From NCBI GenBank assembly GCA_944391515.1, contig CALXTW010000003.1, forward strand, positions 9,102-73,101: 64,000 bases of DNA, written 5' to 3'. The position numbers were made by a program, and so were the translations under genes. The stretch comes from an uncultured Alphaproteobacteria bacterium. GTDB taxonomy: Bacteria > Pseudomonadota > Alphaproteobacteria > RF32 > CAG-239. Under the pieces are notes generated by a model. That model was given only the letters and a program-made list of their open reading frames with translations, ran no database searches and was not told the DNA's origin. Shown here piece by piece: positions 1 to 19,740 of the stretch. Every line of letters starts with the position of its first letter. Position 1 is the stretch's first letter.

Positions 1-1
1 T

Positions 2-3822: not shown

Positions 3823-3851
3823 CTTATACCCAACTCTAAAAATAAAAGCAA
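3823..3851 (-). promoter_or_regulatory. sigma70-type promoter candidate for tRNA-Asp
   Basis: The minus strand reads TTGCTT-N17-TATAAG, ending 14 nt before the tRNA 5' end. Confidence 0.4.
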
Positions 3852-5514: not shown

Positions 5515-5527
5515 ATACTTTATACCT

Positions 5528-5560
5528 AAAAAAGCTCCTCAGAAAATGAGGAGTTTTTTT
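5528..5560 (+). terminator. intrinsic terminator after the M23 peptidase gene
   Basis: CTCCTC / GAGGAG stem followed by T7. Confidence 0.7.
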
Positions 5561-5596
5561 ATTGGTTACTATTTTCCACAACTTATAGGTGGATAT

Positions 5597-6274: not shown

Positions 6275-6334
6275 AAAATTTGCCTTATATTAATTTTTGA
6301 ATTATTGGTAGTTTAACAAAAATTGGTTAATAAA

Positions 6335-7360
6335 ATGAAACTATTCCGCTTGTTTGCTTGTTTAAGTATTTTTATGAGTTCAGCCAATGGCACTTTGGCT
6401 GCCGGTGATGCCGGTTTGCGCTATATCCAAACTCGCGGGATTGTACGTTGCGGAACAGACCTGCAAACAAAAGCATTTGCCAACAAAGATGAAGACGGCT
6501 TTTGGCATGGTTTTGACGTCGATATCTGCAAAGCTATTTCTTATGGCGTTTTTAATCGTGGCGACCGTTTTCAGATGGTTAACATTGCTCCGGAAAATGT
6601 AACACAGGCCCTTGCTTCCAATAAAATCGACGTCATGCTCAGTGGTAGCAATTTTTCAGCTAGAGATGAAATCTCCTCAAAATTTATGCCGGTTGATATT
6701 CTCTATTATGAACAGCAAACTTTTTTAGCAAAGAAAATTCCTGATGCAACTTCTATGGAGGTCTACAAAGGTGCTAAAGTTTGTGTGATTAATGACACTA
6801 TTGATTACCACAACTTATTAAATTACAGTGATACTTACAAACTTGATTTTAAGCTTTTGTCTTTTAAAACAAAAAAACGCGCAGAAGAGGCCTTCTTACT
6901 CAATCGGTGCCAACTTCTGACCGGTAATGCTCTTGTCTTGCAAGCGCTGAAAGAAAAACGCTTTAGCTCTAAAGATGATGTTGTCTTGTTACCGGAACCC
7001 ATTGCTATTAAACCTATTTATGCTTTGGTTGCAAAAGACAATAATAGTTTACGCATTATCGTAAAATGGATTTTTAATGCTTTGAAACTCTCTGAAGAAC
7101 ATAATATCTCTTCGCAAAACATAAATATTTTCATCGGCGCAAAAGATTTATCTTTGCAAAATCTTTTAGGCGACAATCCCAAACTTTGGGCAAAATTCGG
7201 CCTTTCTCCCAATTGGCTTAGAAATGCTATGAGTGACATTGGAAACTACGGTGAAATTTATGAAAGAAACTTTGGCTCTGGTTCTGACTTAAAGATTGAG
7301 CGCAGAGGAAACAACCTGATTGGAAACGGTGGTTTAATTATTGCAGAACCTTTTATTTAA
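6335..7360 (+). CDS. amino-acid ABC transporter substrate-binding protein
   Basis: Signal peptide MKLFRLFACLSIFMSSANGTLA, then GIVRCGTD...GFDVDICKAI as in AapJ-like binding proteins. I chose the ATG at 6335 rather than the TTG at 6323. Confidence 0.7.
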   Translation: MKLFRLFACLSIFMSSANGTLAAGDAGLRYIQTRGIVRCGTDLQTKAFANKDEDGFWHGFDVDICKAISYGVFNRGDRFQMVNIAPENVTQALASNKIDVMLSGSNFSARDEISSKFMPVDILYYEQQTFLAKKIPDATSMEVYKGAKVCVINDTIDYHNLLNYSDTYKLDFKLLSFKTKKRAEEAFLLNRCQLLTGNALVLQALKEKRFSSKDDVVLLPEPIAIKPIYALVAKDNNSLRIIVKWIFNALKLSEEHNISSQNINIFIGAKDLSLQNLLGDNPKLWAKFGLSPNWLRNAMSDIGNYGEIYERNFGSGSDLKIERRGNNLIGNGGLIIAEPFI

Positions 7361-8051
7361 AACACTGAGTGATAAATTTGGTTGCTGCTTGTAAGCCATC
7401 CTCCGTAATGCGGTGTTGCCCGTCAGGAACTGTGTAAGTTTGCACTGCACACCCAAACTTTTCCAATTTTTCTTTTGAATACTCCATTACGGAATAACGG
7501 ACTAAATTATCTTCTTTTCCATGAATTAATAAAAACGATGGTGTATTGGGCTTGTGTTTGGCAAAAAATTTTGATGCCGTTAACAAACCACTAAAGCTGA
7601 CACAACCAGCTATTTTTTCTTGCATTCGTAGTGCCGTATATATGGCTAACATGGCGCCTTGTGAAAAACCGCACAAACACACATCTTTATATTCCAACCC
7701 ATAAAGATTGAGACAATTCTCTATATAGCGTTGTACAATCGTGCTACTTTCTTCAAAGCCGGGAGTCATCTTTTCATAAAAATCCAGACATTCCTCAAGA
7801 CTTGGTACGGTTTTGCGGTCATCATTAGGGTCAAAACGATGCATTGAAAACCACTGACGTTTTCCTTCATGAATTTCGCACAAAAGCGGAGCTTCGGGAA
7901 TATGAAATGCCGTATTATCAAAACTATCAGCAAAGGCTTCTATACGATGATTTAGACATTCACAGTTATCTATATAACCATGCAAAAAAACAATCACCTT
8001 TTGCGGAATACCGCGTGCGTGAACTATTTCTTCCGTAATATCGCCTTTCAT
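7353..8051 (-). CDS. phospholipase/carboxylesterase-family alpha/beta hydrolase
   Basis: Nucleophile elbow GFSQGA, a later HGKEDNLV, and a His in GQHRI. Confidence 0.7.
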   Translation of the reverse strand: MKGDITEEIVHARGIPQKVIVFLHGYIDNCECLNHRIEAFADSFDNTAFHIPEAPLLCEIHEGKRQWFSMHRFDPNDDRKTVPSLEECLDFYEKMTPGFEESSTIVQRYIENCLNLYGLEYKDVCLCGFSQGAMLAIYTALRMQEKIAGCVSFSGLLTASKFFAKHKPNTPSFLLIHGKEDNLVRYSVMEYSKEKLEKFGCAVQTYTVPDGQHRITEDGLQAATKFITQCFK

Positions 8052-8095
8052 TGTTAACCTTTTTTTTGATTTTTTTTGAAGTTACCCCCATTTTT

Positions 8096-8110
8096 TTAAA
8101 ATTCTCTTAA
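8096..8110. promoter_or_regulatory. TTAA-N7-TTAA (CtrA-type) motif upstream of the esterase gene, at the left edge of the phage-like cluster
   Basis: The sequence TTAAAATTCTCTTAA can be read directly. Confidence 0.25.
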
Positions 8111-8119
8111 TTCCTTACA

Positions 8120-8156
8120 AAAAAAAATAACTCCGCCGTAAAACGGCGGAGTTGCT
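8120..8156 (-). terminator. strong intrinsic terminator ending the phage-like cluster
   Basis: AACTCCGCCG / CGGCGGAGTT stem followed by T8 on the minus strand. Confidence 0.75.
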
Positions 8157-8160
8157 TTTT

Positions 8161-8559
8161 TTATTTGAGTAGGCTTTGGGTCGCATTTAAAATACCATTA
8201 ACCGCATTGCTGCGAATTTTATATTTGGTATTAGCGCGATTGGTTTTATATTGCTGATAATAATCGTAATCATCTTCTGCAATATCTTTATAACCCTGGT
8301 AGGCTTCTCGTTGCTGCTCTGCCAAAGCGGATCCATCTCCACTCAACCCCATCGCTGCAACTCTAGCTCGACGTTGAGCCAAATTTTCTTCCAGAATATT
8401 CGTCTTTTTGGCACGATTTGCTTGTTGTTCATGTGCTAGTTTATTCTGTTCCAAGATGTAGTTTTTACGAATATTTTTATTGTCTTCTACAGTATTATAT
8501 AAGTCCTGTATACTACTCAGGCCCTTACTCGTATTTTCTAGGGTCATCAATCCTCCCAT
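8161..8559 (-). CDS. phage-cluster protein of unknown function, in the position and of the size of T7 gp13
   Basis: 132-aa charged, coiled-coil-like ORF with an AGGAGG RBS. It directly follows the nozzle-like gene. Confidence 0.5.
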   Translation of the reverse strand: MGGLMTLENTSKGLSSIQDLYNTVEDNKNIRKNYILEQNKLAHEQQANRAKKTNILEENLAQRRARVAAMGLSGDGSALAEQQREAYQGYKDIAEDDYDYYQQYKTNRANTKYKIRSNAVNGILNATQSLLK

Positions 8560-8571
8560 CTTTTCCTCCTT

Positions 8572-10473
8572 TTATTCTTTGAGTTTTATTTCTACTACTG
8601 CGGATAAAAGCGTAAAGGCCAAAGGCTCATTACTTTTTATACTCCACATCGGTTTATTCATATCCCTTATCCAACCTAAAGCTCTCATCTGTACATCTCC
8701 TGAGTAAGTCATCGGCGGAGCATCAAAAATCTGATCCTGATGAATTCTTTTTAATGGATATTGGAAATATCCTCCGCCAATATCTATACACAAAGATTTT
8801 GAATTTATAATTCGAAAGCGTGCATTGATTACCCTTAGTGCTTTGGGTGAATATGGCCTTTCACTCTCCACCATGTATGGCAGAGGTTCTATCCAATGTT
8901 CATAGGGAATTCCTACTAAAATTTCTGTGGCTTCATCTAAGAGATGTATTTCTCCATCTTCTACCTGAAATTCACCTAAGCTAAAGCCATTGGCAAGAAC
9001 GACAACCTTCTCTCCTTCCAGATTTTCAAGCCCCCCCCAATCTCTTTGTGCTATTTCAGATGTAAGGCGTATGGCACAATCAGAATAATAATCATCTTCC
9101 AGTTTTTCTAGGAAATAACCATTAGCTCGCTGTACGCAAAAATAAATTTCGGTACCAATTACCGCTACTGATAAAAATTTTCCCGATGTTGTTAATTTAC
9201 TCCACGCTGTTACTTCCTCAGTTCGATAAGTGGTCAGACATGAAATCGTTCCATCTTCCAAAACCAGATATAAAATACAAGCATCTTGGTCAAAGCAAAT
9301 ATCTCGTGGTGCTTGAATAATATCATTGGATAGTATCGTTAAGTCTTTTGCCTGATAGGCTTGTTCAACGTCAGTGTAGAGAAATTCTCTTAATTGTTTA
9401 CCGCTTCTGGAAACAAACACTGTTGCACCATCAATTTGCTGCGGTGCCAAAATTTTCTCTGAATAAATACCAACATTGGTTTGACGTTTGAGTTGGATTT
9501 TTTCAGGAGTTAAAGGCTCTCCTGTTACCATCCACTCTGCTCCGGTGGTAAATACTAACAAGTGTCTGGAAGAAACAACCGCCTTGATAGCATTTACTTG
9601 GTCTGATAGAATTCCAAACTCTATTGCCTCATCATCTAAAGCTTCTCCTAAATCAAAGTTAAATAAATCTGATGATTTGGATAACCATAAACGATTGGGT
9701 AAATCCCTGGAACCTCCTATAACCATTCGGTTTTGGTGGAAAGTTACAGATACAGGCCAACCTCTTGCCTCTGAAAAAGCAGATTCCGACCAATCATTGG
9801 TTTCTGCAGAAGAAGTGAAGTTTTTGAGAACTTGTACCTTAATAACCTTACTATCCGTCACTTCGGTAATTTTTGCCAAACCTTTTTGAAAATTAATGTA
9901 ACTCCCGACATGGCTTGACAACCACACATCCGTATCGCAAGTCATGGTTACAGTTCCGCTACCTCCACTAGCGTGAAGTTTCGGTTTTTTTTGATAGAAA
10001 TTATAGTAAGGCATATAAATCATGCCATCCTTCGTATAATATTCCCAATCTTCAATTTTCCAAACCTCATTATTATTACGCGTGATTTGTTTGGGCGGAA
10101 CATCGGGATGAACTATCAAAAATGTATCGGCACTTTGCGTATAGTTTAATTGAAATAATTGTTCTCCTGCCCATGGTGTTTCTAGCTCAGCAATGACTTT
10201 ATCGTCTTTTAGAACCTCTAATTTATTATCTGTCAAACACAATAAATATATTTGTTCGGTATTAAATTCAAACGGCAAAAGACGCATGGGCTTTTCCACT
10301 TTATTGATGAACTTTAACCCGCGGCGGCGCGAAACCCCTCCTGTCGGATGAATAATTACATTTTCAAGGTGCCTCGCCCCATTGGCATAAACCCGCAAAT
10401 CACCCCGCCCTAACAAATCTATGGAAACTTGACCTGCCGTAAAATTGGTTTTTACAGAACCTAAATTACTCAT
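8572..10473 (-). CDS. tail tubular protein B / nozzle-like protein (T7 gp12-like)
   Basis: From memory of T7 gp12: the N-terminus ...NFTAGQVSIDLLGRGDL...G...RRRG resembles NLKGGISQQPDIL, and an internal FHQNRMVIGGS...LSKSSDLFNF resembles FFRNRLGFLSG...SRTAKYFNF. It sits after the gp11-like gene. Confidence 0.6.
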   Translation of the reverse strand: MSNLGSVKTNFTAGQVSIDLLGRGDLRVYANGARHLENVIIHPTGGVSRRRGLKFINKVEKPMRLLPFEFNTEQIYLLCLTDNKLEVLKDDKVIAELETPWAGEQLFQLNYTQSADTFLIVHPDVPPKQITRNNNEVWKIEDWEYYTKDGMIYMPYYNFYQKKPKLHASGGSGTVTMTCDTDVWLSSHVGSYINFQKGLAKITEVTDSKVIKVQVLKNFTSSAETNDWSESAFSEARGWPVSVTFHQNRMVIGGSRDLPNRLWLSKSSDLFNFDLGEALDDEAIEFGILSDQVNAIKAVVSSRHLLVFTTGAEWMVTGEPLTPEKIQLKRQTNVGIYSEKILAPQQIDGATVFVSRSGKQLREFLYTDVEQAYQAKDLTILSNDIIQAPRDICFDQDACILYLVLEDGTISCLTTYRTEEVTAWSKLTTSGKFLSVAVIGTEIYFCVQRANGYFLEKLEDDYYSDCAIRLTSEIAQRDWGGLENLEGEKVVVLANGFSLGEFQVEDGEIHLLDEATEILVGIPYEHWIEPLPYMVESERPYSPKALRVINARFRIINSKSLCIDIGGGYFQYPLKRIHQDQIFDAPPMTYSGDVQMRALGWIRDMNKPMWSIKSNEPLAFTLLSAVVEIKLKE

Positions 10474-11039
10474 AATCTCGCCTCCATTAATGAATAGTCT
10501 TCCAATGTTCTAGGGGTACCTTGTTGTGCATCAACCAGGCGTGCTTTATTGATGGTTTCTTCGGCTAGTTTTTCTAACAACTCAGCACGGGTGGTACTTT
10601 CGGTTAAGGGCAAGCAAAATTCAGCAGACAGTTTAGCTATCAATGCCTCACAGAAAAATGCAGGGAAAGTACTTTCATGCGGACGAAAGATATAACTCAG
10701 ACTTACATTTTCTGAATTGGTATGAAGTCTGTTTTCGTAAATTCGATATTCTATACCCCTCCCTCTACGTCCGTTACCGGCAGAAATTACTCTTAAAAAA
10801 TCGTTAGGCAATAAGTAAGCATACTGATAATCGGCTACAGGAACATCATTTAATCTGGGCAATGTTTTTTGTGCTTTGGCAAAGCTCCACGGATATGATG
10901 ACAATAAACTATCTCTAATCAAGGGATATAAACTGTAGGCTATTTCTGCTTCCGCCGTGCCGTCTTCAAACGAGGTGATGCCTTCCGCACCAATTTTTAA
11001 TAATGCGTTGGAACAGATTCCTATGTTGGTGTAACTCAT
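10470..11039 (-). CDS. tail tubular protein A / adaptor-like protein (T7 gp11-like)
   Basis: From memory of T7 gp11, CSNALLKIGAEGITSFEDGTAEAEIA...SSYPWSF parallels [27 protein letters not shown]...SRGWTF. The size is ~190 aa. I chose the ATG at 11039 because GGAGA lies upstream. Its stop overlaps the next start by 4 nt. Confidence 0.6.
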   Translation of the reverse strand: MSYTNIGICSNALLKIGAEGITSFEDGTAEAEIAYSLYPLIRDSLLSSYPWSFAKAQKTLPRLNDVPVADYQYAYLLPNDFLRVISAGNGRRGRGIEYRIYENRLHTNSENVSLSYIFRPHESTFPAFFCEALIAKLSAEFCLPLTESTTRAELLEKLAEETINKARLVDAQQGTPRTLEDYSLMEARL

Positions 11040-11054
11040 GAATTTCTCCATTGA

Positions 11055-11092
11055 TAAAAAAGGAGAAACCTTTTAATTAAAAGGTTTCTCCT
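11055..11092 (-). terminator. intrinsic terminator between the head genes and the tail-tube genes
   Basis: 14-bp perfect stem AGGAGAAACCTTTT / AAAAGGTTTCTCCT with loop AATT, followed by T6 on the minus strand. Confidence 0.65.
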
Positions 11093-11119
11093 GCCTTTGC
11101 TATTAATGTGTTGGTGATT

Positions 11120-11377
11120 TTATGCCGCGGCAGAGCCTAACTCTGATACGTTCACAGCTCCGTCTGCAATTGATGTGACCGCTAAAATGGCCGGTGCAAC
11201 GGTGCTTTGATTATTAGCTACCGTCAAAATCATATCTCCTACACGAGCAAAAGGCGCAATATCATCAAAGTAATTTGCACCTTTGATGGTGGCTAACGCA
11301 TCAGATGAAGAATAGTTCCAAAGCGTAAAACCATTGGCGTAGGCCATTACACTAAAATCTTTTGACATAAACGACAT
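11120..11377 (-). CDS. small head-module protein of unknown function
   Basis: 86 aa from the ATG at 11377, which has an AAGGAGA RBS. It immediately follows the capsid candidate. Any decoration role is a guess from position only. Confidence 0.45.
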   Translation of the reverse strand: MSFMSKDFSVMAYANGFTLWNYSSSDALATIKGANYFDDIAPFARVGDMILTVANNQSTVAPAILAVTSIADGAVNVSELGSAAA

Positions 11378-11388
11378 TTTCTTTCTCC

Positions 11389-12228
11389 TTATTCGCTGAT
11401 TGAAGATTCTTCTTTGCACTTAATTCGAACGACACCGGTCGGGTCGATTAAGCATGCCCCTTGGCTCATCATATTATTGACGAAGTGTGCGGCATGGTCA
11501 CCGTGCCAGGTGATATCGCTTTTGACATCTTGTCCGCAGGCATGGCCGACTGCGGTTTTGTGGAAGATAAAGCATTGACGCTCTGTTCCGCTTAAAGGCA
11601 AACCGGTATGCATAATCCAGTTAATGCCCAACCATTTACGGCTCTCGGTTCCTTTTAAGAACGGCAGATTGTCGCCGGCATAATCAGAATTTGAGAACTC
11701 GGCAACGTTGAGCAATGCATTCCATTGATAAGGTCCTACCAAACCAAAACGTTGTCCGTCATCTGGAACATCGTTAGAGTTTAATTTGGCAAAAGCATCC
11801 AAAATATCCTTTTTGCTCATAGCTAAACCATAATCACCGACATCGTTGTCTTCGGGAGCTTTGCTCAAAGCGTCAATAATCAATTCATCGGTTTTGCGCC
11901 CCAAAGCATAAGCTCCGGAATTGGCAATGACACGGCGCTCATCAATGCTTACTTTTAATTCATCCAAAGCATCTACCCAATCGCCGGCATAGTAGTCTTG
12001 AAGTTCGCACTCAATCGGCGTGTGGTCCAAAGACATTACTGGAACCAAGCCGTGGCGTGCCTTTTGTGAAGCCATACCTTTGCCGACTTTTTGGAAGACG
12101 GTGGATGAGCCTTTAACATTGTTTTTGGTGCGAACCGCATTTCTCAATTTTGAGCCGTTTTGTTGGTAAGCCAAGTGAACATCAGCTTCAAATTGTTTGA
12201 TAAAGGATTCGGTTATTTGTGTTGACAT
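11389..12228 (-). CDS. major capsid protein candidate
   Basis: 279-aa ORF directly after the scaffold-like gene, in the T7 gene-10 position. The sequence resembles podovirus capsid families from memory only. Confidence 0.55.
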   Translation of the reverse strand: MSTQITESFIKQFEADVHLAYQQNGSKLRNAVRTKNNVKGSSTVFQKVGKGMASQKARHGLVPVMSLDHTPIECELQDYYAGDWVDALDELKVSIDERRVIANSGAYALGRKTDELIIDALSKAPEDNDVGDYGLAMSKKDILDAFAKLNSNDVPDDGQRFGLVGPYQWNALLNVAEFSNSDYAGDNLPFLKGTESRKWLGINWIMHTGLPLSGTERQCFIFHKTAVGHACGQDVKSDITWHGDHAAHFVNNMMSQGACLIDPTGVVRIKCKEESSISE

Positions 12229-12277
12229 ATTTTCCTCCTATTTGTGATTAACCTATATAAAAAAACCCTGAAAAGGT

Positions 12278-13000
12278 TTATTTTTCAGGGTAGAGTTTTT
12301 CAAATCCGCGCGTAATCTTATTGATATAAGCACTGTCTTTATCGCGCCAGTAACGCGGATCTTCCATCATCTTGCGTAAGGTTTGTTCGTTTAACCCTCC
12401 TTCATAGCCGTTATCTTTGCTAAGCATAGGTTCGTTAGACGACATCATCTTATACAAGGCTATTACGCCTTCGGCGGTGGAGCCCAAAGCGTCATAGACG
12501 TCCCCGCTCAAATTTTGTTTTGCCCAAGCTGAAATTTGGCGAGAAACTTCATCAAATCTCTCTCTGCCCCCAAAGTAATTGGTCAGCTTGGCAAGCTGTT
12601 TTTGAGCCTCAAAGTTTACGGTCAATTGGTCTAGAACCGGAATGACACGTTCATTAGCCAAGTCATAAACAAATTGTGCTTGGTCATTGGTAAAGCCATG
12701 TTCATAAAACTGTTTGAACAATTCTTCATCATGATCCAACAATTCATTTGGGATTTTTATCTGATATTTATCATAGCTTTCCGGCATATTGCGGTTGTGC
12801 GTTTCTATCAGATTTTCATCCCTCATGGCCATAGAGTTATAGTCATCAATCAATTCTTGCAGTTTTATTGTTTGGGTAGCTTCATCCCAGAATTTGGGCG
12901 GCAAATTTGCCGGTTTCCCTTGTTCCGGAGCTGAAGGACCTGAACTCTTAGCTGCTGCACGATTCATTTCGTTGAGATTTTCAACTGGTCTTTCTTTCAT
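12278..13000 (-). CDS. scaffolding protein candidate
   Basis: 240-aa acidic, helix-rich ORF between the portal and capsid genes (the T7 gene-9 position). Confidence 0.45.
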   Translation of the reverse strand: MKERPVENLNEMNRAAAKSSGPSAPEQGKPANLPPKFWDEATQTIKLQELIDDYNSMAMRDENLIETHNRNMPESYDKYQIKIPNELLDHDEELFKQFYEHGFTNDQAQFVYDLANERVIPVLDQLTVNFEAQKQLAKLTNYFGGRERFDEVSRQISAWAKQNLSGDVYDALGSTAEGVIALYKMMSSNEPMLSKDNGYEGGLNEQTLRKMMEDPRYWRDKDSAYINKITRGFEKLYPEK

Positions 13001-13018
13001 GTTTTTTCCTTTCTTTGA

Positions 13019-13240
13019 TTAATTATCGTCTGATATCTTGTTTTGGATTATTGAAACCAGATGTCTTTGTCCTTCCAGATGACGCAATGCATCAGAAGAG
13101 CTTTCGGGTCCCAAATATCGCTCCTGTGTCAGACGTTTTAGGTAAGAGAGGACTATTCTCCCTTCCCTACTCGAAAAGCATTTTACAAATGCTTCACGAA
13201 TCTGTGCTTCCGACATGTGTCGGGTATCATACGGCTGCAT
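13019..13240 (-). CDS. small phage-cluster protein
   Basis: 73-aa ORF between portal and scaffold. Its start overlaps the portal stop region. Confidence 0.4.
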   Translation of the reverse strand: MQPYDTRHMSEAQIREAFVKCFSSREGRIVLSYLKRLTQERYLGPESSSDALRHLEGQRHLVSIIQNKISDDN

Positions 13241-14753
13241 TCTCTTGCTCCGCTACTTCAGCCTCAGAGGCGAGCGGTGTTTCCCTTATCAACTGCGTTG
13301 GCACACAAAGGGTTTTGCCCAGCCATCTGGAAGCTTCTTCCACATTGACTGCCGCCAAGGCATCTGGTCCGAAGGTAGCAAGCATTGACACCCACTCACT
13401 GACGTTGGTAATGTCCTTTCGGGTTTGAGCCAAAGCCAGAGGTGATTTATACTGCAGATCAACTATTTTCCCGTCTAAGTCAAAATTCGGAATATCACCA
13501 CGACGTCGCAAAATTTGAAATGCTCGTTTCAAAAGCGGGGTCAGTAATTCCGATTGCAAACGCCCAAATGTGGCACCTAAAATGCGCGCAACTTCTGCAG
13601 AGCGTTCCAAAACTTCCGTAGCTGTCATATTCGGAGTGGCAATTTGAGCCAGTCTATCTGCCAGCAATGCATGGTTTATTCTTTGACGTAAATCCGAAAG
13701 AATAAGCTGAGAAACATCAAAATTGCCAGGGGCACTCAACGGAGTTAGGCCCTTTGAGCCCACCGCCTTAGGAATGATTGCTCCAGGGACAAGTTTGATG
13801 TTATCAGGATTTAAGATGCCATCGTCATCTGCTTGCCAAATTCCAGTTACCGAAATGGAGGCATTTTTCAAAATTAACTCCACGACTTTGTTGGCAGTCT
13901 TAATATCCGGCAGGGCTTTCATGACCGGTGAACGGCCATAAATTTCACCCGGAGCCTTGAGCCAACGAAAGTTGATAAAGGGAGAGGTTTCAAAAATACC
14001 TTCTTTTAAGATACAACTATCCTCATAACCACTGTTTTCATCCCAAGCAAAAGCTATGTAATCATAGCCACAAGCACCGGCATTGTAATTTCTGGGCAAG
14101 ACAGCTTCTATAATGCTTAACTGATACTCTCGGTCTTGCTCTAGGCGTTCCTGCAAGAAAGATGGCATTTGGGCTTCGGGAAAACGTGTGCGTATGCCTT
14201 CCAAATTAAGTTTGGAGCAACGAAACGTGGTATCAATTTTGCCATCCGAACTTTCCTCTATGGCAATTTCCCGCAGAGGAACCGCGTAAAAGTGAAACGC
14301 CGTAGCCTCTCCAATCGCTGCCTCCTCAAACATTAAACAAGCTGTTCCGACTGTTACCAAATCCAGATAGCATTGATGAACTTCGACTGCAAAATTAGAG
14401 TGCTCAAAGTTTTGCAGCATAATTTCTGAAGATTTATCCAAAATCGGGGCAACTTGCTCTTGCTCGGTCGGGCTCAGCTCATTGCCTGGTCTGAGGCCAA
14501 ACCACTTTGCCCAAGGAGGGGTTAATTCCGACAATAAAGATGAGGCTAATTGGTCAACCGCATCAGGCGCCGTACCATCAAACAAGCATAGATTTTTCTT
14601 AGAACCTTGCGGCGTGTCTACGCCAAAAGAACTTACATTTTCTCTTAGCGGGAAAGCATATTCATAGCATTCACGCCAATGCTCCTCCCAATTTTGTTTT
14701 CTCTCGGCTGCCTTTTTGTAACGGCTAACCAAATTTTCAAGTTGATGTTCCAT
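13227..14753 (-). CDS. portal protein (T7 gp8-type head-to-tail connector)
   Basis: 508 aa. From memory of T7 gp8, GEIYGRSPVMKALPDIK...MTATEVLERSAEVARILGATFGRLQSELLTPLLKRAF parallels GESYGRSYIEEYLGDLR...VTAEEIRYVASELEDTLGGVYSILSQELQLPLVRVLL. Confidence 0.8.
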   Translation of the reverse strand: MEHQLENLVSRYKKAAERKQNWEEHWRECYEYAFPLRENVSSFGVDTPQGSKKNLCLFDGTAPDAVDQLASSLLSELTPPWAKWFGLRPGNELSPTEQEQVAPILDKSSEIMLQNFEHSNFAVEVHQCYLDLVTVGTACLMFEEAAIGEATAFHFYAVPLREIAIEESSDGKIDTTFRCSKLNLEGIRTRFPEAQMPSFLQERLEQDREYQLSIIEAVLPRNYNAGACGYDYIAFAWDENSGYEDSCILKEGIFETSPFINFRWLKAPGEIYGRSPVMKALPDIKTANKVVELILKNASISVTGIWQADDDGILNPDNIKLVPGAIIPKAVGSKGLTPLSAPGNFDVSQLILSDLRQRINHALLADRLAQIATPNMTATEVLERSAEVARILGATFGRLQSELLTPLLKRAFQILRRRGDIPNFDLDGKIVDLQYKSPLALAQTRKDITNVSEWVSMLATFGPDALAAVNVEEASRWLGKTLCVPTQLIRETPLASEAEVAEQENAAV

Positions 14754-14755
14754 TT

Positions 14756-14977
14756 TTATTCTCCCAAGAGATTTTTGCGCTTGAGGGTATCTTCTTTTTC
14801 TCCTAAAATACCATTATAAGATGTGCGAATTGTACCTTCTTGACCTCGACGTTGACGCTCTAAACTTTCTTGTCTTTCTTGTTCTGCTTTCTTTTTAGCC
14901 TCAGCCTCCGTATCAACAACCGGTACGACCGGTTGTTGTGGTTTTGGTGTGCTAAAAATCTTAAATACTCCTCCCAT
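14756..14977 (-). CDS. small Lys/Glu-rich phage-cluster protein
   Basis: 73-aa ORF tightly packed upstream of the portal gene. Confidence 0.4.
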   Translation of the reverse strand: MGGVFKIFSTPKPQQPVVPVVDTEAEAKKKAEQERQESLERQRRGQEGTIRTSYNGILGEKEDTLKRKNLLGE

Positions 14978-14988
14978 TGTTTTTCCTT

Positions 14989-15348
14989 TCAGTTTTCGGG
15001 TGTTTTATTTAACTTTGAAGATGACTTTGAGGTTTGAGATTTTTTCTCGGTGAAATTGGGACTTTTAACCACTGAAATTCCCATAACACCCAAAGCCATA
15101 CTCCAAAGTGATGTTGTTTCAACAAGTGCCATAATAATTTTTTCCGCTCGAGGGTGATTTATCCAGACAACCCAACATATCGTGCTCATTTGCAAAACCC
15201 ATGTCAGACATACCGAATAACCAAAAAGCGGATGCCAATTGCACTCCCAAGACGAACCATGCCTCTTTCGTCTTTCAAGCGCGCTGCCACAAAAAAAATG
15301 ACGCATGATTTTCATCAGCGTCATAGGTGCCTTTGTTTTAAAAAACAT
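14989..15348 (-). CDS. two-TM membrane protein, holin-like by position
   Basis: Two hydrophobic segments and a basic C-terminal tail. It starts immediately after the stop of the SleB-like hydrolase gene. Confidence 0.35.
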   Translation of the reverse strand: MFFKTKAPMTLMKIMRHFFCGSALERRKRHGSSWECNWHPLFGYSVCLTWVLQMSTICWVVWINHPRAEKIIMALVETTSLWSMALGVMGISVVKSPNFTEKKSQTSKSSSKLNKTPEN

Positions 15349-15765
15349 TTATGTCTCAATATCATTGTAAAAGAGATGATGCCCTATCTCAGCACAGGGA
15401 ATTTTTCCCCTTGACCAAGCAGGATTGGTGTTTTTGGTATGATAATGCGTGGCATGCGACGTATTATCCTCCAAAACCCCAGAAATTGCTCTGCCTGCAA
15501 TGCGTTTGCAAATACAAAAAATAATATCTGTATCTGTAACCCTTTGTATCAGAGCATAGTTGGAATCTGACTTGTTCCAACACGAAAATTGGTAGGGACA
15601 ACGACATATGCCTTTAATCGTATTGCCCCACCAATAACGTCCTTTTCTTCGGCTGAAAGCCAAGCGATTTAAAACAACTGAGGCGACAGCTTCCATTCCG
15701 GATATGCTCTCGCCTCGTGCCTCCCCATAAATCGTACGGGCTAATGTATCCAAATCTTCACTCAT
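15349..15765 (-). CDS. cell-wall hydrolase, SleB/Hydrolase_2 family (endolysin candidate)
   Basis: N-terminus LARTIYGEARGES...VASVVLNR and a later YHT..., typical of SleB-type hydrolases. Confidence 0.75.
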   Translation of the reverse strand: MSEDLDTLARTIYGEARGESISGMEAVASVVLNRLAFSRRKGRYWWGNTIKGICRCPYQFSCWNKSDSNYALIQRVTDTDIIFCICKRIAGRAISGVLEDNTSHATHYHTKNTNPAWSRGKIPCAEIGHHLFYNDIET

Positions 15766-16049
15766 CTTGACCTCCCGACTTCATCGAGTTTTTTCTCAAT
15801 TCTCAATAAGTGATTGGTTAAACGATTTTCAACATCTTTCAGGTAGCCCGTGGAAACATAGTTTCTGGCAACATGTAATTTGAAATCTGCTAATGATTCT
15901 TTACAAATATCAACTCTACCCTCCGTATGATTTTGAGTGGCTAGGAGTTGTTCCTCCATTTCTTTTCTTTGTTTGACTAACATTCGAAAAACCGCAACAA
16001 ACAACGGTATTTCAATCATTGCTATCCAATTTATCAATTCATTAAACAT
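15762..16049 (-). CDS. N-terminally anchored coiled-coil protein (holin/spanin-like by position)
   Basis: One N-terminal TM segment (IEIPLFVAVFRMLV) followed by charged helix. It overlaps the hydrolase start by 4 nt. Confidence 0.4.
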   Translation of the reverse strand: MFNELINWIAMIEIPLFVAVFRMLVKQRKEMEEQLLATQNHTEGRVDICKESLADFKLHVARNYVSTGYLKDVENRLTNHLLRIEKKLDEVGRSR

Positions 16050-16060
16050 GGTTTTATTCC

Positions 16061-17584
16061 TTATATGCTAAAATTGGTTTGCGCCTTAAACTGACCGGAA
16101 GTTCCCTGCCAAGAGAAACGTTTATAGTCGCCCATATCAGCATAAGCTTGTGTGAAACGTATCGGCTCAGATGACAAACAACCGGCAACCGCGTCTAACC
16201 CATCATCATGCACACTTCCTTCGGTGTTCCACTCCCGCATTTCTTCAATAAACGGCGTATTCCATATTCGTCGATGCGCATTAAGCGCCCTATCGGCCAG
16301 TAAAACTTCAAACGCCTCTAAAATACGGGCGGCTTTGCTGGTGGATGAATACATCTCTAAAACCGCCGTTCGAATCTTGCGCCTTTGCAGGGTTTGCTTT
16401 AAGATACCGGGTAAGAATTTACCAATACCGTTAGCTTCTACCCGAATAGAAGGCAAGTGATTGCGCTCAATAAAATCAGCGACCTTTTCACATTGAAGCG
16501 AGGCTTGATTGTCTTGCGACTGAGCCGATAGTTTGATATATTCAACATCATGGAGCCAGAACTTACCTTCTTCATCGGTAAAGACACAAGCGATAACACT
16601 ATTGTCTCCCGATGAGGAGGCAAAAGACGGATCCCACCAGCAAGATGCCGAAAGCAATTTTTTATCACCCAAGTGCAAAACCTCTCGACCATTGGCATAA
16701 GTTTGTGTGAGTTCCAAATTGTAAACACACAGTCTTTCCGGATTGAGTACGCAATCTCTGAAATTAACAGGTTGCAACATCATCTGCGACAAAAACTTAT
16801 TTTCTCCCGAACGTTGGCGAAGAGAAGCAATTTTCTCTACCGAAAAACGCTCAGGCCAACTGCTTTGATTTTTCTTATCTAAAATCGGAATTTCCAATTT
16901 TTTGAAATTCAGCAAAAACGGCTCAATCTCCGGACGCGAATTATCATAGTCCACTTGATAAATGGTATAAAACGTGTGCGGTGTTCCGATGTATAACTGC
17001 ATGCCCTCGGGCGTTAGAATATAGTCCAACTCCTCGAGTTTTTCCCTTAGTTCTATCCGTTTGAGCGGTGTATCGCAGTTTTTGGGAACCTCGACATCAT
17101 CACAAATTATCAAGTCGGCACGCAAGCCCGTGATATTAGCCCCTATTCCTTTGGCCAACATTGATGGGTCGCGTAACTCCATATCTCGCCTAATGGTAAA
17201 TTGGTCGGACGCCCATTGCTCCAGTTTTTCTGGTTTGAGCTGTTGGGTTAGCGGATGCTGCTCTATGATGCGTTTGACATTGCGTACCATTTTCTTGGCT
17301 AAAGCGTGGTCTGCGGCCATTACCAAAATTCTGGTTGAGGTTTTGGTATATAAGACCCATGCGCAAAATAGACCGACAATGGTGGATTTGCCGGAGTTGC
17401 GAAATGCCATCAGTAATCCTTGGCGGTCTTGCTCGCTTTGCCAAAGTGAGCTCAGCCATTTGGCTATTTTGCGTTGGTGTTTCGGGACTTTCAGATTTTG
17501 CAGTTTGAACCAGATAAAAATAAACTCGTAAAAACTAATCTGGTTCATCTTCCGCACCATCCAATTCCGCTCTCGCTTCCGCAA
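16061..17584 (-). CDS. terminase large subunit
   Basis: Walker-A-like FRNSGKST, Walker-B-like LIICDDVE, and a C-terminal nuclease-like part with conserved Asp residues. The start is uncertain: ATGs at 17584, 17560 and 17548 all overlap the upstream ORF. Confidence 0.75.
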   Translation of the reverse strand: MRKRERNWMVRKMNQISFYEFIFIWFKLQNLKVPKHQRKIAKWLSSLWQSEQDRQGLLMAFRNSGKSTIVGLFCAWVLYTKTSTRILVMAADHALAKKMVRNVKRIIEQHPLTQQLKPEKLEQWASDQFTIRRDMELRDPSMLAKGIGANITGLRADLIICDDVEVPKNCDTPLKRIELREKLEELDYILTPEGMQLYIGTPHTFYTIYQVDYDNSRPEIEPFLLNFKKLEIPILDKKNQSSWPERFSVEKIASLRQRSGENKFLSQMMLQPVNFRDCVLNPERLCVYNLELTQTYANGREVLHLGDKKLLSASCWWDPSFASSSGDNSVIACVFTDEEGKFWLHDVEYIKLSAQSQDNQASLQCEKVADFIERNHLPSIRVEANGIGKFLPGILKQTLQRRKIRTAVLEMYSSTSKAARILEAFEVLLADRALNAHRRIWNTPFIEEMREWNTEGSVHDDGLDAVAGCLSSEPIRFTQAYADMGDYKRFSWQGTSGQFKAQTNFSI

Positions 17585-17852
17585 GCAATTTTAGAATATC
17601 TTCCGTGCCCGACGAAGTTGTGTTGTCAGACGTTTCGCCTTCGGTCCACTTAGCCAGCTTTAATAATGTTTCTGCATGCGTTACCGCTGATTTGCAGGCG
17701 CTGTGGTGTGCACTAAAGCCTTTGGCATCTTCGGGGATTGGTCTTTCCGAAAATGTTTCATAACTCTCTAACACCTGTGAAACCTTTTCGGGAAGAGTCT
17801 TTTGCAAGTTTTTCTTTAAGGACTTTAAGGTCTTGGCCTTTTTGAAATGCAT
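17535..17852 (-). CDS. small protein upstream of the large terminase (small terminase candidate by position only)
   Basis: 105-aa ORF with an AAGGAG RBS. It is the first gene after the leader terminator. Confidence 0.35.
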   Translation of the reverse strand: MHFKKAKTLKSLKKNLQKTLPEKVSQVLESYETFSERPIPEDAKGFSAHHSACKSAVTHAETLLKLAKWTEGETSDNTTSSGTEDILKLLAEARAELDGAEDEPD

Positions 17853-17882
17853 TTTAACTCCTTTCTTACAGGTTGGGGGTAT

Positions 17883-17917
17883 AAAAAAAATTCGCTAAGA
17901 CCTGATGTCTTGCGAAT
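17883..17917 (-). terminator. intrinsic terminator in the leader of the packaging/structural operon
   Basis: The minus strand reads ATTCGCAAGAC-atcag-GTCTTaGCGAAT (11 bp, one bulged A) followed by T8. It ends 30 nt before the ATG at 17852. Confidence 0.7.
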
Positions 17918-17959
17918 CTAACTTTGCTTTGGACACACTAATAGCAAGTGGCGTTTTTG

Positions 17960-17988
17960 TATGTAGCAAATTTTTTTTCGTTTGTCAA
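17960..17988 (-). promoter_or_regulatory. sigma70-type promoter candidate upstream of the leader terminator
   Basis: The minus strand reads TTGACA-N17-TACATA. The -35 overlaps the TGA stop of ORF 17985..18428. Confidence 0.45.
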
Positions 17989-18428
17989 GAACTTTTTCCT
18001 ACAATTTTTAATATTTTTTTATAAAGTTGCCACGGCGTATGGATGAAACAATCGTGTAACCCTATCACACGCTTGACAAATTCAACACAGGTAAAAAAAG
18101 ATAATGGTGCACATTTGAGTGGGGCTTGCGCTATATCTATCGGGCACAAAATCACATTGCGACTCCTTCGAATATAATCAGCAAAATCAAAAGTATCTGG
18201 ATATTCATAAATAAATATGGCCGTTTGATTTGACAGAGGATTAAGCTCGACCCAGAGCCCGCTTCCTCTAAGCTTTAATAAAATATAGCAGTGTCTAAAT
18301 CCGGGCTTGAGGAGTCTTAGCCACCACAAAGTGGTATTATCGGCAAAAACAACATAACATTGTTCACAAGCCTTAGGAGCAAATACATCTAGCCTCATAG
18401 AGTAATTATTCCCTTTGATAAGAGCCAC
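17985..18428 (-). CDS. phage-cluster early-region protein, unknown function
   Basis: 147-aa ORF. An alternative ATG at 18398 would overlap the upstream stop by 4 nt. Confidence 0.45.
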   Translation of the reverse strand: MALIKGNNYSMRLDVFAPKACEQCYVVFADNTTLWWLRLLKPGFRHCYILLKLRGSGLWVELNPLSNQTAIFIYEYPDTFDFADYIRRSRNVILCPIDIAQAPLKCAPLSFFTCVEFVKRVIGLHDCFIHTPWQLYKKILKIVGKSS

Positions 18429-18730
18429 CCTTCCAGCGCATGTAAACCTTCATCCCAGAGTCTGATTTCGCTCCTTTTGGCGCGATAGTGATAATAAGGC
18501 GAGCACTCAAGCTGCCCCCATTTAACCATCACACGGAGGTGGCGATTGGTAATTTGATGATTTAGCTTCATCTTCTTGATTATACGATAAATATCCGCTA
18601 CTTCACAATTTCTGATTTTTCCTTTGAAATCATTGCAAGAGCGTAAGCCTCCATCTCTTGCCATAATACAACCACAAAACCAAAACCAGACCTCTTCGGC
18701 GTTTTCAAATGGCTCAAAATCCTCTCGCAT
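18395..18730 (-). CDS. phage-cluster early-region protein, possible regulator
   Basis: 111-aa Cys/Trp/Arg-rich ORF. It is the first gene transcribed from the divergent control region. Confidence 0.45.
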   Translation of the reverse strand: MREDFEPFENAEEVWFWFCGCIMARDGGLRSCNDFKGKIRNCEVADIYRIIKKMKLNHQITNRHLRVMVKWGQLECSPYYHYRAKRSEIRLWDEGLHALEGWLLSKGIITL

Positions 18731-18759: not shown

Positions 18760-18774
18760 TTAACTAATCGTTAA
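18760..18774. promoter_or_regulatory. TTAA-N7-TTAA (CtrA-type) motif in the cluster control region
   Basis: TTAACTAATCGTTAA lies just downstream of the candidate -10 of the minus-strand promoter. Confidence 0.35.
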
Positions 18775-18782
18775 CTTTATCT

Positions 18783-18810
18783 GTTATATATTAGGTTGTA
18801 GGAATTTCAA
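18783..18810 (-). promoter_or_regulatory. promoter candidate for the early ORFs of the cluster
   Basis: The minus strand reads TTGAAA-N16-TATAAC. Confidence 0.45.
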
Positions 18811-18822
18811 CATAAAAAAGAA

Positions 18823-18851
18823 TTGATTCCTAAGATTTTTTATTGTATAGT
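18823..18851 (+). promoter_or_regulatory. promoter candidate for the HTH/S24 regulator gene
   Basis: TTGATT-N17-TATAGT, about 40 nt upstream of the RBS TAAGGAGG. It lies back-to-back with the minus-strand promoter, with the two -35 boxes 12 bp apart. Confidence 0.5.
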
Positions 18852-18892: not shown

Positions 18893-19513
18893 ATGCAATA
18901 TGAACAAGTTTGGGATGCTGTTGATAAGTTGGCAAAATTACACGGCTTAACCCCTTCAGGATTGGCTAAAAAAGCCGGTCTGGACGCCACAACTTTTAAT
19001 AAGAGCAAAAGAATTCGCAATGACGGGAAACAACGTTGGCCTTCCCTTGACAGCATTAATAAAATTTTGGAAGCCTGCAATGTCTCCTTTGAACAATTCT
19101 ATCAACTCATTGATGAAGATTTAGCCATTAAACCTGCAGGTATTCCCTTTATTACTTATTCGGATTTATCAACTAAAGCGACTATTAAAACATCTAAACT
19201 GGCTACAGAAAAGTGGGATAAGGTGCAATTTCCAGACAGCAGTGTAAACCTCTATGCCATTAATTTAGACACGACCGATTTTGAACCTCTTTACCGCAAA
19301 GGTTGCACTTTGGTGGCTACCAAAGATTTGGAAATCCGAAAAGGAGACCGCGTCATTGTACTTATGCAACAAGAGAAGCCTTTAATCAAAGAATTTAAGC
19401 ACCGGACAACATCTACAATTGTGTTTGGCGATATCTTAAATCCAAACCAAGAAGTCCAAGTGAAAATGACAGATATCAAGCTCATTAACCGAATCGTTTG
19501 GGCTGAACAATAA
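18893..19513 (+). CDS. HTH transcriptional regulator with C-terminal peptidase-S24-like (LexA/CI-type) domain
   Basis: The N-terminus ...LAKLHGLTPSGLAKKAGLDATTFNKSKR...RWPSLDSINKIL matches an alphaproteobacterial repressor-like family as I remember it. The C-terminus (...KGDRVIVLMQ...LIKEFK...) fits an S24 fold. Confidence 0.7.
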   Translation: MQYEQVWDAVDKLAKLHGLTPSGLAKKAGLDATTFNKSKRIRNDGKQRWPSLDSINKILEACNVSFEQFYQLIDEDLAIKPAGIPFITYSDLSTKATIKTSKLATEKWDKVQFPDSSVNLYAINLDTTDFEPLYRKGCTLVATKDLEIRKGDRVIVLMQQEKPLIKEFKHRTTSTIVFGDILNPNQEVQVKMTDIKLINRIVWAEQ

Positions 19514-19740
19514 TGGATAATTTTCAATATTACTTGCATGCCGATTCTTGCAATTTATACGAAAATGAGCTCAGATTTGATGTTCTGCCCAATCATTTTG
19601 AGCTCACTTTTTCGATAGATAAAATCTGTTTTAACTTAACCAGAGATTTGGCTAAGCGGAGATTTAAATCTGACGAGAGCCTGAAACTAGAAAAATACCT
19701 GCGTTTGTATCGGGACTATGCTTTAGCTCATAAATCATAG
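19513..19740 (+). CDS. small hypothetical protein coupled to the regulator gene
   Basis: 75-aa ORF whose ATG overlaps the regulator's TAA (TAATG). Confidence 0.4.
   Translation: MDNFQYYLHADSCNLYENELRFDVLPNHFELTFSIDKICFNLTRDLAKRRFKSDESLKLEKYLRLYRDYALAHKS

Follow-up and report, generated by a model that had tools for sequence, protein, structure and literature searches.

FpGTA of Faecalibacterium prausnitzii is reported as the first podovirus-like gene transfer agent (GTA); its particles and the 8.4-8.9 kb of DNA packaged in them were shown experimentally, and a second operon, 125 kb distant, carries the fibre and lysis genes (PMC12946183). Among the Alphaproteobacteria, the described agents closest to our subject are RcGTA, found in Rhodobacter, Caulobacter and others and placed in the Rhodogtaviriformidae, and BaGTA, a member of the Bartogtaviriformidae that is found in Bartonella and comprises a capsid locus, bgtA-K, and a ror locus. 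Here we analyse a cluster of particle genes in a 64,000-nucleotide stretch, hereafter the window, of contig CALXTW010000003.1 from an uncultured alphaproteobacterium (assembly GCA_944391515.1, positions 9,102 to 73,101 of the forward strand). By its gene content, the cluster is a unit of ~11.6 kb that joins podovirus head, DNA-packaging, short-tail and lysis genes to a regulatory switch. It is probably the domesticated remnant of a temperate T7-supergroup podovirus, kept as a GTA-like particle system; it stands apart from RcGTA, BaGTA and FpGTA and forms a branch of a wide, apparently undescribed family in the Rhodospirillales.

The likeness to FpGTA lies in the layout. FpGTA is likewise a gut operon, of ~10.5 kb, which encodes TerS-like and TerL proteins, portal, scaffold, capsid and short-tail-type proteins and holds no replication genes, and it is near-ubiquitous in its clade, as the cluster is in its own. 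It differs in having a Gram-positive host, and no homology between the two is shown. Its lysis genes occupy a separate operon, whereas here they lie inside the cluster, and its particles have been seen, whereas the present system is known from genes alone. The preliminary description of this DNA had taken a podovirus-type module of head plus nozzle for a new architecture; that holds for the Alphaproteobacteria and for this gene set, but not for GTAs in general, FpGTA being the precedent (PMC12946183).

Like the cluster, BaGTA is an alphaproteobacterial, chromosomally fixed, phage-derived set of capsid, packaging and lysis genes that co-diverges with its host. It also carries a terminator before its late operon, thought to be overcome by the Q21-like antiterminator BrrG; the cluster has such a terminator too, which a phage-type antiterminator would overcome. 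The genes themselves, however, are unrelated. In BaGTA a portal gene of 1863 nt adjoins a terminase gene of 1344 nt and the capsid-related gene measures 1119 nt, whereas here a T7-type portal is accompanied by scaffold, adaptor and nozzle, with no adjacent run-off-replication module. The bgt set (a portal of ~620 aa beside a terminase of 447 aa, a capsid-related protein of 372 aa, an adjacent run-off-replication module) was thus not found. We had considered the cluster as a BaGTA, as suggested by a GC content of 38% and an alphaproteobacterial hint, and rejected this since gene sizes and order differ and the relatives are Rhodospirillales, not Bartonella. With RcGTA the cluster shares the concept of an alphaproteobacterial, vertically inherited head-tail gene set, and a CtrA-box-like site is conserved here. 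The gene set itself differs: in RcGTA the head is of HK97 type, made with a prohead protease, and the tail is that of a siphovirus, whereas the cluster contains no protease or tail tube genes, and its portal, scaffold and nozzle are of T7 type. Delivery by RcGTA relies on competence proteins of the recipient.

The best matches for the portal, capsid, adaptor and nozzle come from Legionella phage LME-1, Cobetia phage Carin-1 and HTVC010P-type pelagiphages, the nearest relatives whose virions have been solved or sequenced, which are temperate or marine T7-supergroup podoviruses without an RNA polymerase of their own. They also share the gene order portal, scaffold, capsid, small post-capsid gene, adaptor, nozzle and internal protein(s). 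Yet these are true phages: their 30-35 kb include genes for replication or integration and encode a tail fibre as well as three internal virion proteins, and their identity to the cluster is only 31-44%. For control, the nearest model is lambdoid (cI, and Q acting at PR'-qut-tR'). The cluster resembles it in having divergent promoters with an operator repeat, a cI-like repressor with helix-turn-helix (HTH) and S24 domains, and, in front of the packaging and structural genes, a late promoter with a short leader and an intrinsic terminator behind it. It differs from it in that the repressor here appears unable to self-cleave, the Q-like protein is only a candidate and the structural genes are of T7 type.

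Reading the minus strand from 18730 to 8161, we found 16 intact open reading frames (ORFs) with little or no spacing, where the preliminary description had counted about 17. The ORFs it listed all lie on the minus strand where it had placed them, uninterrupted and close-set, and the stop/start overlaps that it noted are real, with 4 nt each at nozzle/adaptor, endolysin/o95 and o111/o147. Its functional labels stood up to profile (Pfam, PHROG) and structure-database (PDB) searches; in particular, the portal, gp11 and gp12 assignments, which it had named as a point on which its idea could fail, are correct by both profile and structure matches. Judged from homologs, the likely true starts are 18398 for o147, ~17548 for terL and ~11377 for o99.

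The T7-supergroup virion module is present, with a gp8 portal, gp9 scaffold, gp11, gp12 and gp19 terminase, all encoded on the minus strand. The portal (508 aa, 13227-14753) matches PF12236 at 4e-139 and the PDB portals of LME-1, Carin-1 and T7. The scaffolding protein (12278-13000) matches PF05396, the T7 capsid assembly protein, at 7e-19. The major capsid protein (279 aa, 11389-12228) matches PF19821 at 2.8e-76 and the LME-1 capsid 9EG4 at 1.3e-30, and its ratio of nonsynonymous to synonymous substitution rates (dN/dS) is 0.01-0.02. The large terminase (16061-17548) matches PF17289 and PF22530, and its best solved match is T7 DNA maturase B (4BIJ, 3e-22). The adaptor, or tail tubular protein A (10470-11051), gives phrog_394 tail protein at 5e-50, a weak PF17212 (Tube) match and the connector in 8CK1 at 4e-5. 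The tail nozzle (8572-10473) gives PF25675 at 5e-9, the Carin-1 nozzle in PDB 8CK1 at 4.6e-52 and LME-1 orf18 at 8e-31.

Smaller head and packaging genes fill the positions between them. A Bbp19-like small phage protein is encoded at 13019-13240 (PF25181, 1.7e-12). o99 (11120-11377, probably 85 aa; phrog_18004, 4e-19, with the match beginning at residue 15) is kept across the family and follows the capsid gene, which is the position of the head-decoration gene in the LME-1 gene order. o105 (17535-17852; phrog_31793, 3e-42) overlaps the terL start in the T7 gene 18 position, and an o105-like gene always lies directly upstream of terL, distant loci included; this position makes it a candidate small terminase. 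o73 (14756-14977; phrog_831, 2e-5) lies directly upstream of the portal, in the T7 gene 7.3 position, and its ends are kept family-wide (N-terminus MGG, C-terminus K.LLGE); in distant loci its homolog is the first gene behind the late terminator. Searches of Pfam, PHROG and NCBIfam gave no functional name for o73, o99, o105, o111 or o147.

The last ORF, o132 (132 aa, 8161-8559), conserved in all gut-clade loci, occupies the T7 gp13/14 position and resembles a small internal virion protein. It has no direct profile match. A hidden Markov model of o132 orthologs, however, picks up the post-nozzle ORF in distant loci, and 7 of the 18 members of the joint family match phrog_418, 'internal virion protein' (best 1.6e-9). 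These matches of distant members support the placement as a gp13 counterpart that had been proposed from position and size. Conserved features of o132 are the start MGG, the core LE..LA.RRA..G..G and a C-terminal ..LLK. Only a single small gene of this kind follows the nozzle in the gut clade, and the same holds for the distant loci examined; LME-1 has three internal virion proteins.

No feature of an autonomous phage or prophage (replication genes, integrase or att site, own polymerase) was found, nor any of a capsid-forming satellite of the kind of capsid-forming phage-inducible chromosomal islands (integrase, att site, replication module, mobility). As the preliminary description had stated, the window holds no integrase, polymerase, primase or helicase among the ORFs scanned, and no long att-like direct repeats surround the cluster. 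The locus shows instead two traits of a GTA, with particle genes in the host chromosome that lack replication, excision and integration functions and that are vertically inherited under purifying selection. Since there are no replication or excision functions, the particles could carry chromosomal DNA only.

Vertical inheritance is best seen in the gut clade. A portal scan of species-representative genomes yielded at least 474 confirmed matches; the 23 closest, species-level relatives, with portal identity from 98% down to 65%, are all uncultured gut Alphaproteobacteria, and one of them is 'Candidatus Scatocola faecipullorum', placed by NCBI in the Rhodospirillales. At these 23 loci, provided that the contig is long enough, the whole cluster is found with its gene order unchanged and with identical host neighbours. 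The ORFs have kept their lengths, apart from a few at contig ends, one short adaptor and one short nozzle. In the four closest relatives, where the synonymous divergence (dS) is unsaturated, dN/dS is 0.01-0.13 for nearly every cluster gene, o119 excepted, versus 0.03-0.13 for the host flanks. Over 22 taxa, the protein distances of seven genes from the cluster correlate with those of five host genes beside it, with a Mantel r of 0.975 that 0 of 2000 permutations reached; the evolutionary rate of the cluster is ~0.69 times that of the flanks.

Because these loci had all been found through the portal, the search was repeated from the host esterase. This esterase-anchored metagenome search returned 11 contigs of one species, with the cluster directly upstream in 10 of the 11. 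Selection, synteny and co-divergence thus agree in favouring retention over decay, as had been anticipated. Two findings that the preliminary description had named as fatal to its idea did not materialize: relatives do not carry a 40-kb podovirus at this site, all 23 gut-clade loci holding the compact cluster, and the cluster is neither strain-specific nor under relaxed selection, given the low dN/dS values, the kept lengths and the esterase-anchored contigs.

Within this conserved cluster, divergence is uneven. Between close strains the nozzle, o132 and o73 are the most diverged genes, with 83-90% nucleotide identity versus 94-99% for the head and terminase genes; against locus L001 of a close relative, o132 is 78% and o73 85% identical, the adjacent genes being 96-100% identical, and the dS of o132 reaches 2.7. 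The excess in o132 and o73 suggests allele exchange or diversifying pressure, and divergence of the tail-end genes and o73 is what one would expect of surfaces that come into contact with a target cell.

The family extends well beyond the gut clade. Members occur in Magnetospirillum, Azospirillum, Telmatospirillum, Terasakiella, Caenispirillum and many metagenome-assembled genomes, at 55-60% portal identity. Their gene order runs from a divergent repressor through o111, o147 and o73 to portal, Bbp19-like gene and scaffold, and then through capsid, o99, adaptor, nozzle, an o132-like gene, a fibre with the gp17 N-terminal domain, and an o105-like gene to terL and the lysis genes, which corresponds to the T7 order from gene 7.3 to gene 19 minus genes 14-16. 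A search for the T7 gp17 N-terminal domain gave 47 hits among related chromosomal and IMG/VR loci and one in pelagiphage Hodr.

These distant loci measure 13-18 kb and are embedded among host genes. Their flanking ORFs are housekeeping, e.g. aminotransferases, FabI, FtsW and NAD kinase, and no recurrent integrase was found in 134 flank ORFs from 51 loci. IMG/VR lists copies in isolate genomes as proviruses of only ~18 kb (loci L082-L161). Host-gene surroundings, the lack of a recurrent integrase and the ~18 kb provirus calls together make the whole family look resident, not mobile. Sixteen distant loci adjoin lysK, which encodes a class I lysyl-tRNA synthetase, and the distances of LysK are correlated with those of the portal (r=0.55, 0 of 5000 permutations). 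In some lineages, among them Magnetospirillum and Terasakiella, inserted host-type genes separate scaffold from capsid (L032 12506-14016; L027 12698-14204; L063 3040-5346). Some of these genes are in opposite orientation, and their products include a GGDEF-EAL protein, an ODP metallo-beta-lactamase and an MCP-signalling fragment. The best true phages in a set of 50,697 phage records were ~35 kb pelagiphages, with 37% portal and 44% capsid identity, and the plasmid collection held no close relative. In the literature we found no description of a T7-like agent in Rhodospirillales.

The distant Rhodospirillales layout represents the ancestral state. By that comparison, the gut clade has lost the fibre gene and moved the TerS-like, TerL and lysis block to a place between o147 and o73. 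Its repressor has lost the catalytic Ser, the Ala-Gly site and often the Lys, and an invariant TTAA-N7-TTAA site has been gained (22/22 sequences versus 0/49 loci). We put forward, as a tentative extension of the domestication reading, that the window represents one branch of an old, undescribed T7-like GTA family in Rhodospirillales-type Alphaproteobacteria (at least 474 matches, with the neighbourhood often shared) under lambdoid control. The clade of human and animal guts would have gone furthest in this, having lost SOS-cleavable repressor function and the fibre, placed the packaging and lysis block behind the late terminator, gained the CtrA-box-like site, and come to make fibre-less heads with nozzles whose delivery depends on the recipient. 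This is possible, but we hold it with less than even confidence.

Chromosomes of the Azospirillum brasilense group (L070-L080) carry the family with an intact self-cleaving repressor. Particles inducible by mitomycin C and containing ~10 kb of random host DNA have been described in strain B510 and in A. lipoferum, and no genes were ever assigned to them (PMC3899980, PMC2818188). That the family is the source of these 10 kb particles is a lead only, and a T=7 head would not fit 10 kb.

A 5 kb GenBank record from human faeces, MT838907.1 (L162), 'UNVERIFIED: Bacteriophage sp.', is a fragment of a relative of the cluster. It was considered as proof of packaging in virus-like particles and set aside, the record being unverified and the same data set having matched an apparent bacterial (MBOAT-like) gene.

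Control of the cluster begins in an early region beside o111. The cI-like repressor, with a Cro/C1 HTH and an S24-peptidase-like domain (PF13443, PF00717), is encoded on the plus strand at 18893-19513. It belongs to the unit, since it accompanies the cluster in every relative; the limits of 8161-18730 drawn earlier are thus right for the 16 genes but too narrow for the unit. A 75-aa ORF at 19513-19740 (plus strand), weakly conserved and overlapping the repressor stop codon, is perhaps also part of it. In an alignment with LexA and family members, the repressor of the window has LDTTDFEP where GDSMEP is expected, and no AQAG. The catalytic Ser and the Ala-Gly cleavage site are lost throughout the gut clade, and often the Lys as well, whereas all are intact in distant relatives. 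The gut-clade repressor is thus predicted to be unable to self-cleave.

Two divergent promoters lie between the repressor gene and o111. The repressor promoter (TTGATT, 17 nt, TATAGT; 18823-18851, plus strand) faces the early promoter (18783-18810, minus strand; -35 TTGAAA 18810-18805, -10 TATAAC 18788-18783), which is kept in 22 of 22 sequences. An inverted repeat at 18799-18832, TAGGAAT (18799-18805) and ATTCCTA (18826-18832), overlaps the -35 boxes of both and is a candidate operator for the cI-like repressor; like the early promoter, it is kept in 22 of 22 sequences. A block of ~50 nt in this spacer, which takes in the repeat, both -35 boxes and the TTAA-N7-TTAAC site described next, is near-invariant in 22 taxa, and the remaining spacer is not conserved.

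Just downstream of the early -10 box, a TTAA-N7-TTAAC site (18760-18775, plus strand) matches the CtrA-box consensus. CtrA, whose box has the consensus TTAA-N7-TTAAC, is also the regulator of RcGTA. In all 22 gut-clade sequences, the two TTAA halves are invariant and lie at the same offset, with a variable spacer between them; the site was found in none of 49 loci from distant relatives. Across the window, TTAA-N7-TTAAC occurs at chance level, so the evidence for a CtrA box consists in the conserved half-sites with a free spacer. The proposed link of the early region to CtrA is one of sequence motif only. By eye, an alphaproteobacterial LexA box, GTTC-N7-GTTC, was seen in locus L040 only.

The early promoter leads into o111 and o147. 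o111 (18395-18730, minus strand), the first early-operon gene, encodes a four-helix protein by alignment and by an AlphaFold2 model with a predicted local distance difference test score (pLDDT) of 85. It is a weak candidate for a Q-type antiterminator, a lead and not a finding, kept as a hypothesis because the layout of the late promoter and terminator fits. o147 (137 aa; 17985-18398, minus strand) has 271 homologs, all unnamed, with the motifs GFRHC and FTCVE.VKR invariant family-wide. From an invariant His-Cys on a strand and a Cys at a helix start, it was considered as a permuted NlpC/P60 (LRAT-like) Cys/His enzyme; Foldseek against the PDB and a profile search came back empty, and the idea is a lead only.

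The late promoter overlaps the end of the early region. It is predicted to be of sigma-70 type and spans 17960-18001 on the minus strand, with TAGGAA at 18001-17996, a -35 box TTGACA at 17988-17983, a spacer of 17 nt and a -10 box TACATA at 17965-17960. The -35 box overlaps the o147 stop codon, and TTGAC stands at this place in 57 of 72 loci. In the leader behind it, the motif CACTTGCTATTAGTG (17935-17950, minus strand), which contains a -10-like TAGTGT, is conserved in all gut-clade loci, and a related motif, CACCACnnnTGCG, is found in the Magnetospirillum, Terasakiella, Telmatospirillum and Caenispirillum loci. It is a candidate pause or antiterminator-loading element.

An intrinsic, tR'-like terminator (17883-17918, minus strand; hairpin and T-run) then separates the late promoter from the first late gene and is followed by the ribosome-binding site and start codon of o105. 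A hairpin and T-run stand at this position across the gut clade and in many distant loci, their stem sequences differing completely. A strict finder detected the leader terminator in at least 43 of 72 loci; it misses bulged stems, such as the window's own. The module of late promoter, leader and terminator between o147 and o105 is family-wide, occurring in the gut clade and in several distant genera.

A further terminator and a terminator-like hairpin lie within the late operon, both on the minus strand. At the boundary of the head and tail genes, the position of Tphi in T7, an intrinsic terminator with a 14 bp stem and T-run occupies 11061-11092; in all gut-clade loci with the interval recovered (20 and the window), a GC-rich hairpin with a T-run follows capsid/o99, with unrelated stems. 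A terminator-like hairpin that overlaps the scaffold stop codon (12265-12291) is kept only in nearer relatives. Taken together, the layout of late promoter, leader and terminators points to lambdoid-style antitermination control. A terminator placed behind the late promoter is the PR'-tR' logic of lambdoid phages, shown in BaGTA and reported in CcGTA.

A non-coding motif, ACACATTAATAGCAAAGGC (consensus ~AYAYTWATTAGCAAATGA), stands directly upstream of the internal terminator at 11093-11111 on the minus strand. It is present in most gut-clade loci beside unrelated stems and may serve in RNA processing, bind a protein or form part of a promoter.

The lysis genes lie inside the cluster, on the minus strand. 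The endolysin, a SleB-type cell-wall hydrolase (15349-15765; PF07486 Hydrolase_2, 2e-20), has a membrane protein on either side. o119 (14989-15348), with two transmembrane segments, is holin-like by its sequence and its place beside the endolysin, and has the highest dN/dS of the cluster, 0.2-0.46. o95 (15762-16049; phrog_29007, 2e-32), with an N-terminal transmembrane segment and a coiled coil, is a putative spanin-like or holin-like protein.

From these parts we propose how the cluster might work. In most cells, the non-cleavable cI-like protein would shut the early promoter, and late transcripts would halt at the leader terminator. A host signal, for which CtrA is one candidate, would open the early promoter, and o111 and o147 would be made. 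An early product, with o111 as a weak candidate, would then let RNA polymerase pass the leader and head/tail terminators in the manner of Q or BrrG. Heads would be built on the portal with the scaffold, the T7-type terminase would fill them with chromosomal DNA, and adaptor, nozzle and the small internal protein would close the particle. In a subset of cells, release would come by lysis through the holin-like protein, the endolysin and the spanin-like protein. Delivery might depend on genes elsewhere in the genome, as for the FpGTA fibre (PMC12946183), or on recipient uptake of DNA released into the periplasm.

Several observations weigh against the reading of the cluster as a GTA-like system, which is itself a candidate made of genes and not of particles. 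A fibre gene is absent from the window and, in every gut-clade locus, from within 10 kb of the cluster; the fibre N-terminal domain is absent also from loci L001-L026 and L082-83. No gp15/gp16-like ejection protein was found in the gut clade or in the distant family loci examined. With neither a local fibre nor gp15/16 proteins, DNA delivery is the weakest step of the proposed mechanism. Uptake by the recipient of DNA that was released into its periplasm is known for RcGTA.

Head size may be a further difficulty. The LME-1 capsid, the closest solved homolog, forms a T=7 head of 60 nm; a head that kept T=7 would have room for more DNA than the 11.6 kb of the cluster, and the classic size criterion for a GTA, a head unable to hold the genes that encode it, may fail. 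Even so, the element would be incapable of self-propagation. The proposed control also has weak points: the o111 model reached top TM-scores of 0.45-0.51 to phage 21 Q in Foldseek, with E values of 1.4-5, which is not significant, and sequence searches of o111 in BFVD and the PDB gave nothing usable. For o147, a confident AlphaFold2 model (pLDDT 85) gave no PDB fold or sequence match.

Finally, one of the esterase-anchored contigs, L170 (ODVQ01000520.1), from a human-gut 'Scatocola'-like species, has other genes beside the esterase instead of the cluster. A low-GC (~32%) heptose/lipopolysaccharide block at 1-9930 ends 70 nt before the esterase, its genes assigned by eye as hldE, gmhA, gmhB, hldD-like and an MBOAT protein. 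We considered this contig as an empty site and rejected it as such; with these genes abutting the esterase, it reflects a rearrangement or a chimeric assembly, not a clean deletion.

The absent fibre and ejection core would fit a particle that does not inject, and the evidence for domestication applies equally if the particle or lysis system serves something other than transfer. It might form a particle that, like PBSX, packages DNA without delivering it, it might kill competitors, or it might bring about programmed lysis by which DNA or public goods are set free in the gut. The complete lysis cassette has been kept, and PBSX and possibly FpGTA offer precedents (PMC12946183). Such a role would leave the strong purifying selection on portal, terminase, adaptor, nozzle and internal virion protein hard to explain, and the nozzle, o132 and o73 diverge most between close strains, as parts in contact with target cells should; we regard it as rather unlikely, though a serious contender. 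The same missing parts (fibre, gp15/16, replication) are also those that a helper could supply. As a helper-dependent satellite or a defective phage, the cluster would supply heads and tail hub itself, rely on an infecting T7-like phage for fibres, ejection proteins and replication, and be mobilised in this way. The adaptor and nozzle, which in T7-like tails form the fibre-docking surface, are intact. Capsid-forming satellites that steal tails exist. However, the locus lacks an integrase, an att site and a replication origin module, the 50,697 phage records contained no close relative that could act as helper, and the fixed site with co-divergence with the host over 22 taxa means that the cluster is not moving, all of which makes this explanation improbable.

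A variant of the GTA-like reading itself concerns what would be packaged. An element without excision or replication might package in situ, as in lateral transduction: the terminase would cut at a pac site in the cluster and successive heads would take up the chromosome next to it, so that transfer would favour genes on one side over a random sample of the genome. The terminase is of T7 type, which is site-specific in phages; with a T=7 head like that of LME-1, each headful would take ~30-40 kb of neighbouring DNA, and, as BaGTA shows, selection can favour packaging that is biased by position. We identified no pac site, however, and neighbours differ between family lineages, so no cargo seems tied to the element; we consider this variant improbable. 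Least credible of all is that the cluster is the functionless stump of a decaying prophage. It is indeed far smaller than any T7-like phage genome, with replication, integration, fibre and core genes missing. Yet the 16 ORFs are intact in 23 lineages in which flanking housekeeping proteins differ by up to 54%, a persistence that refutes decay, and dN/dS stays at 0.01-0.13 with promoters, operator and terminators conserved. The domesticated, GTA-like particle system is the reading that we retain.

The surroundings of the cluster are those of an ordinary chromosome, as the preliminary description had it, with housekeeping genes on both sides. On one side lie the esterase, a solute-binding protein, MlaC and an M23 peptidase. 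The strong terminator that was said to close the operon next to the esterase is there: a bidirectional intrinsic terminator at about 8128-8154 (minus strand), with a stem of 11-12 bp, 7 GC pairs and T-runs on both strands, 110 nt before the esterase gene. On the other side, a small ORF translationally coupled to YhdP is followed by YhdP itself, a hydrolase, RF2, PBP1a, AmiC and RNase E. The GC content of the cluster, 0.40-0.46, is the same as that of conserved host genes in the window, and an Rfam search of the cluster matched no family. A scan of 20 of the larger ORFs between 1.6 and 61 kb showed the rest of the window to be housekeeping or without family match, with ClpB, an RpoH-type sigma factor, tRNA synthetases, ThyX and a squalene-synthase-like protein, and no fibre gene was found in the window.

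Relatives vary in the stretch that separates the repressor operon from the YhdP-coupled small ORF. Several close relatives carry ~1.3 kb extra there (L001 3698-5029; L005 3679-5004), missing from the window at 19517-19764, and the alignment of the window to L001 breaks exactly at this stretch. Elsewhere, a low-GC segment (0.30-0.34) at 53000-56500, adjoining tRNA-Glu (53176-53251) and unrelated to the cluster, contains small ORFs without family match, a GNAT acetyltransferase and a cyclophilin-like protein, and may be a small island. At 38541-41291, two squalene/phytoene-synthase-family genes precede an amine-oxidase-family gene, an hpnCDE-like set of hopanoid type and an ordinary host feature.

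GTAs are known from only a handful of independent domestications, and each new one shows which parts of a phage can be dropped and how the host takes over control. The pattern of late promoter, leader and terminator described here would be a third case, besides BaGTA and CcGTA, in which a GTA is under antitermination control. The cluster raises the question of how DNA could enter a Gram-negative cell without a gp15/16 ejection channel. It also illustrates that resident clusters can be miscounted as phages, as with the ~18 kb proviruses of IMG/VR and the 'Bacteriophage sp.' fragment in GenBank. If our reading is true, this would be a podovirus-derived case in the Alphaproteobacteria, unrelated to RcGTA and BaGTA, in common uncultured gut bacteria. 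And since the ancestral form of the family has a fibre and an SOS-cleavable repressor and the derived form has neither, the steps of domestication are readable from genomes.

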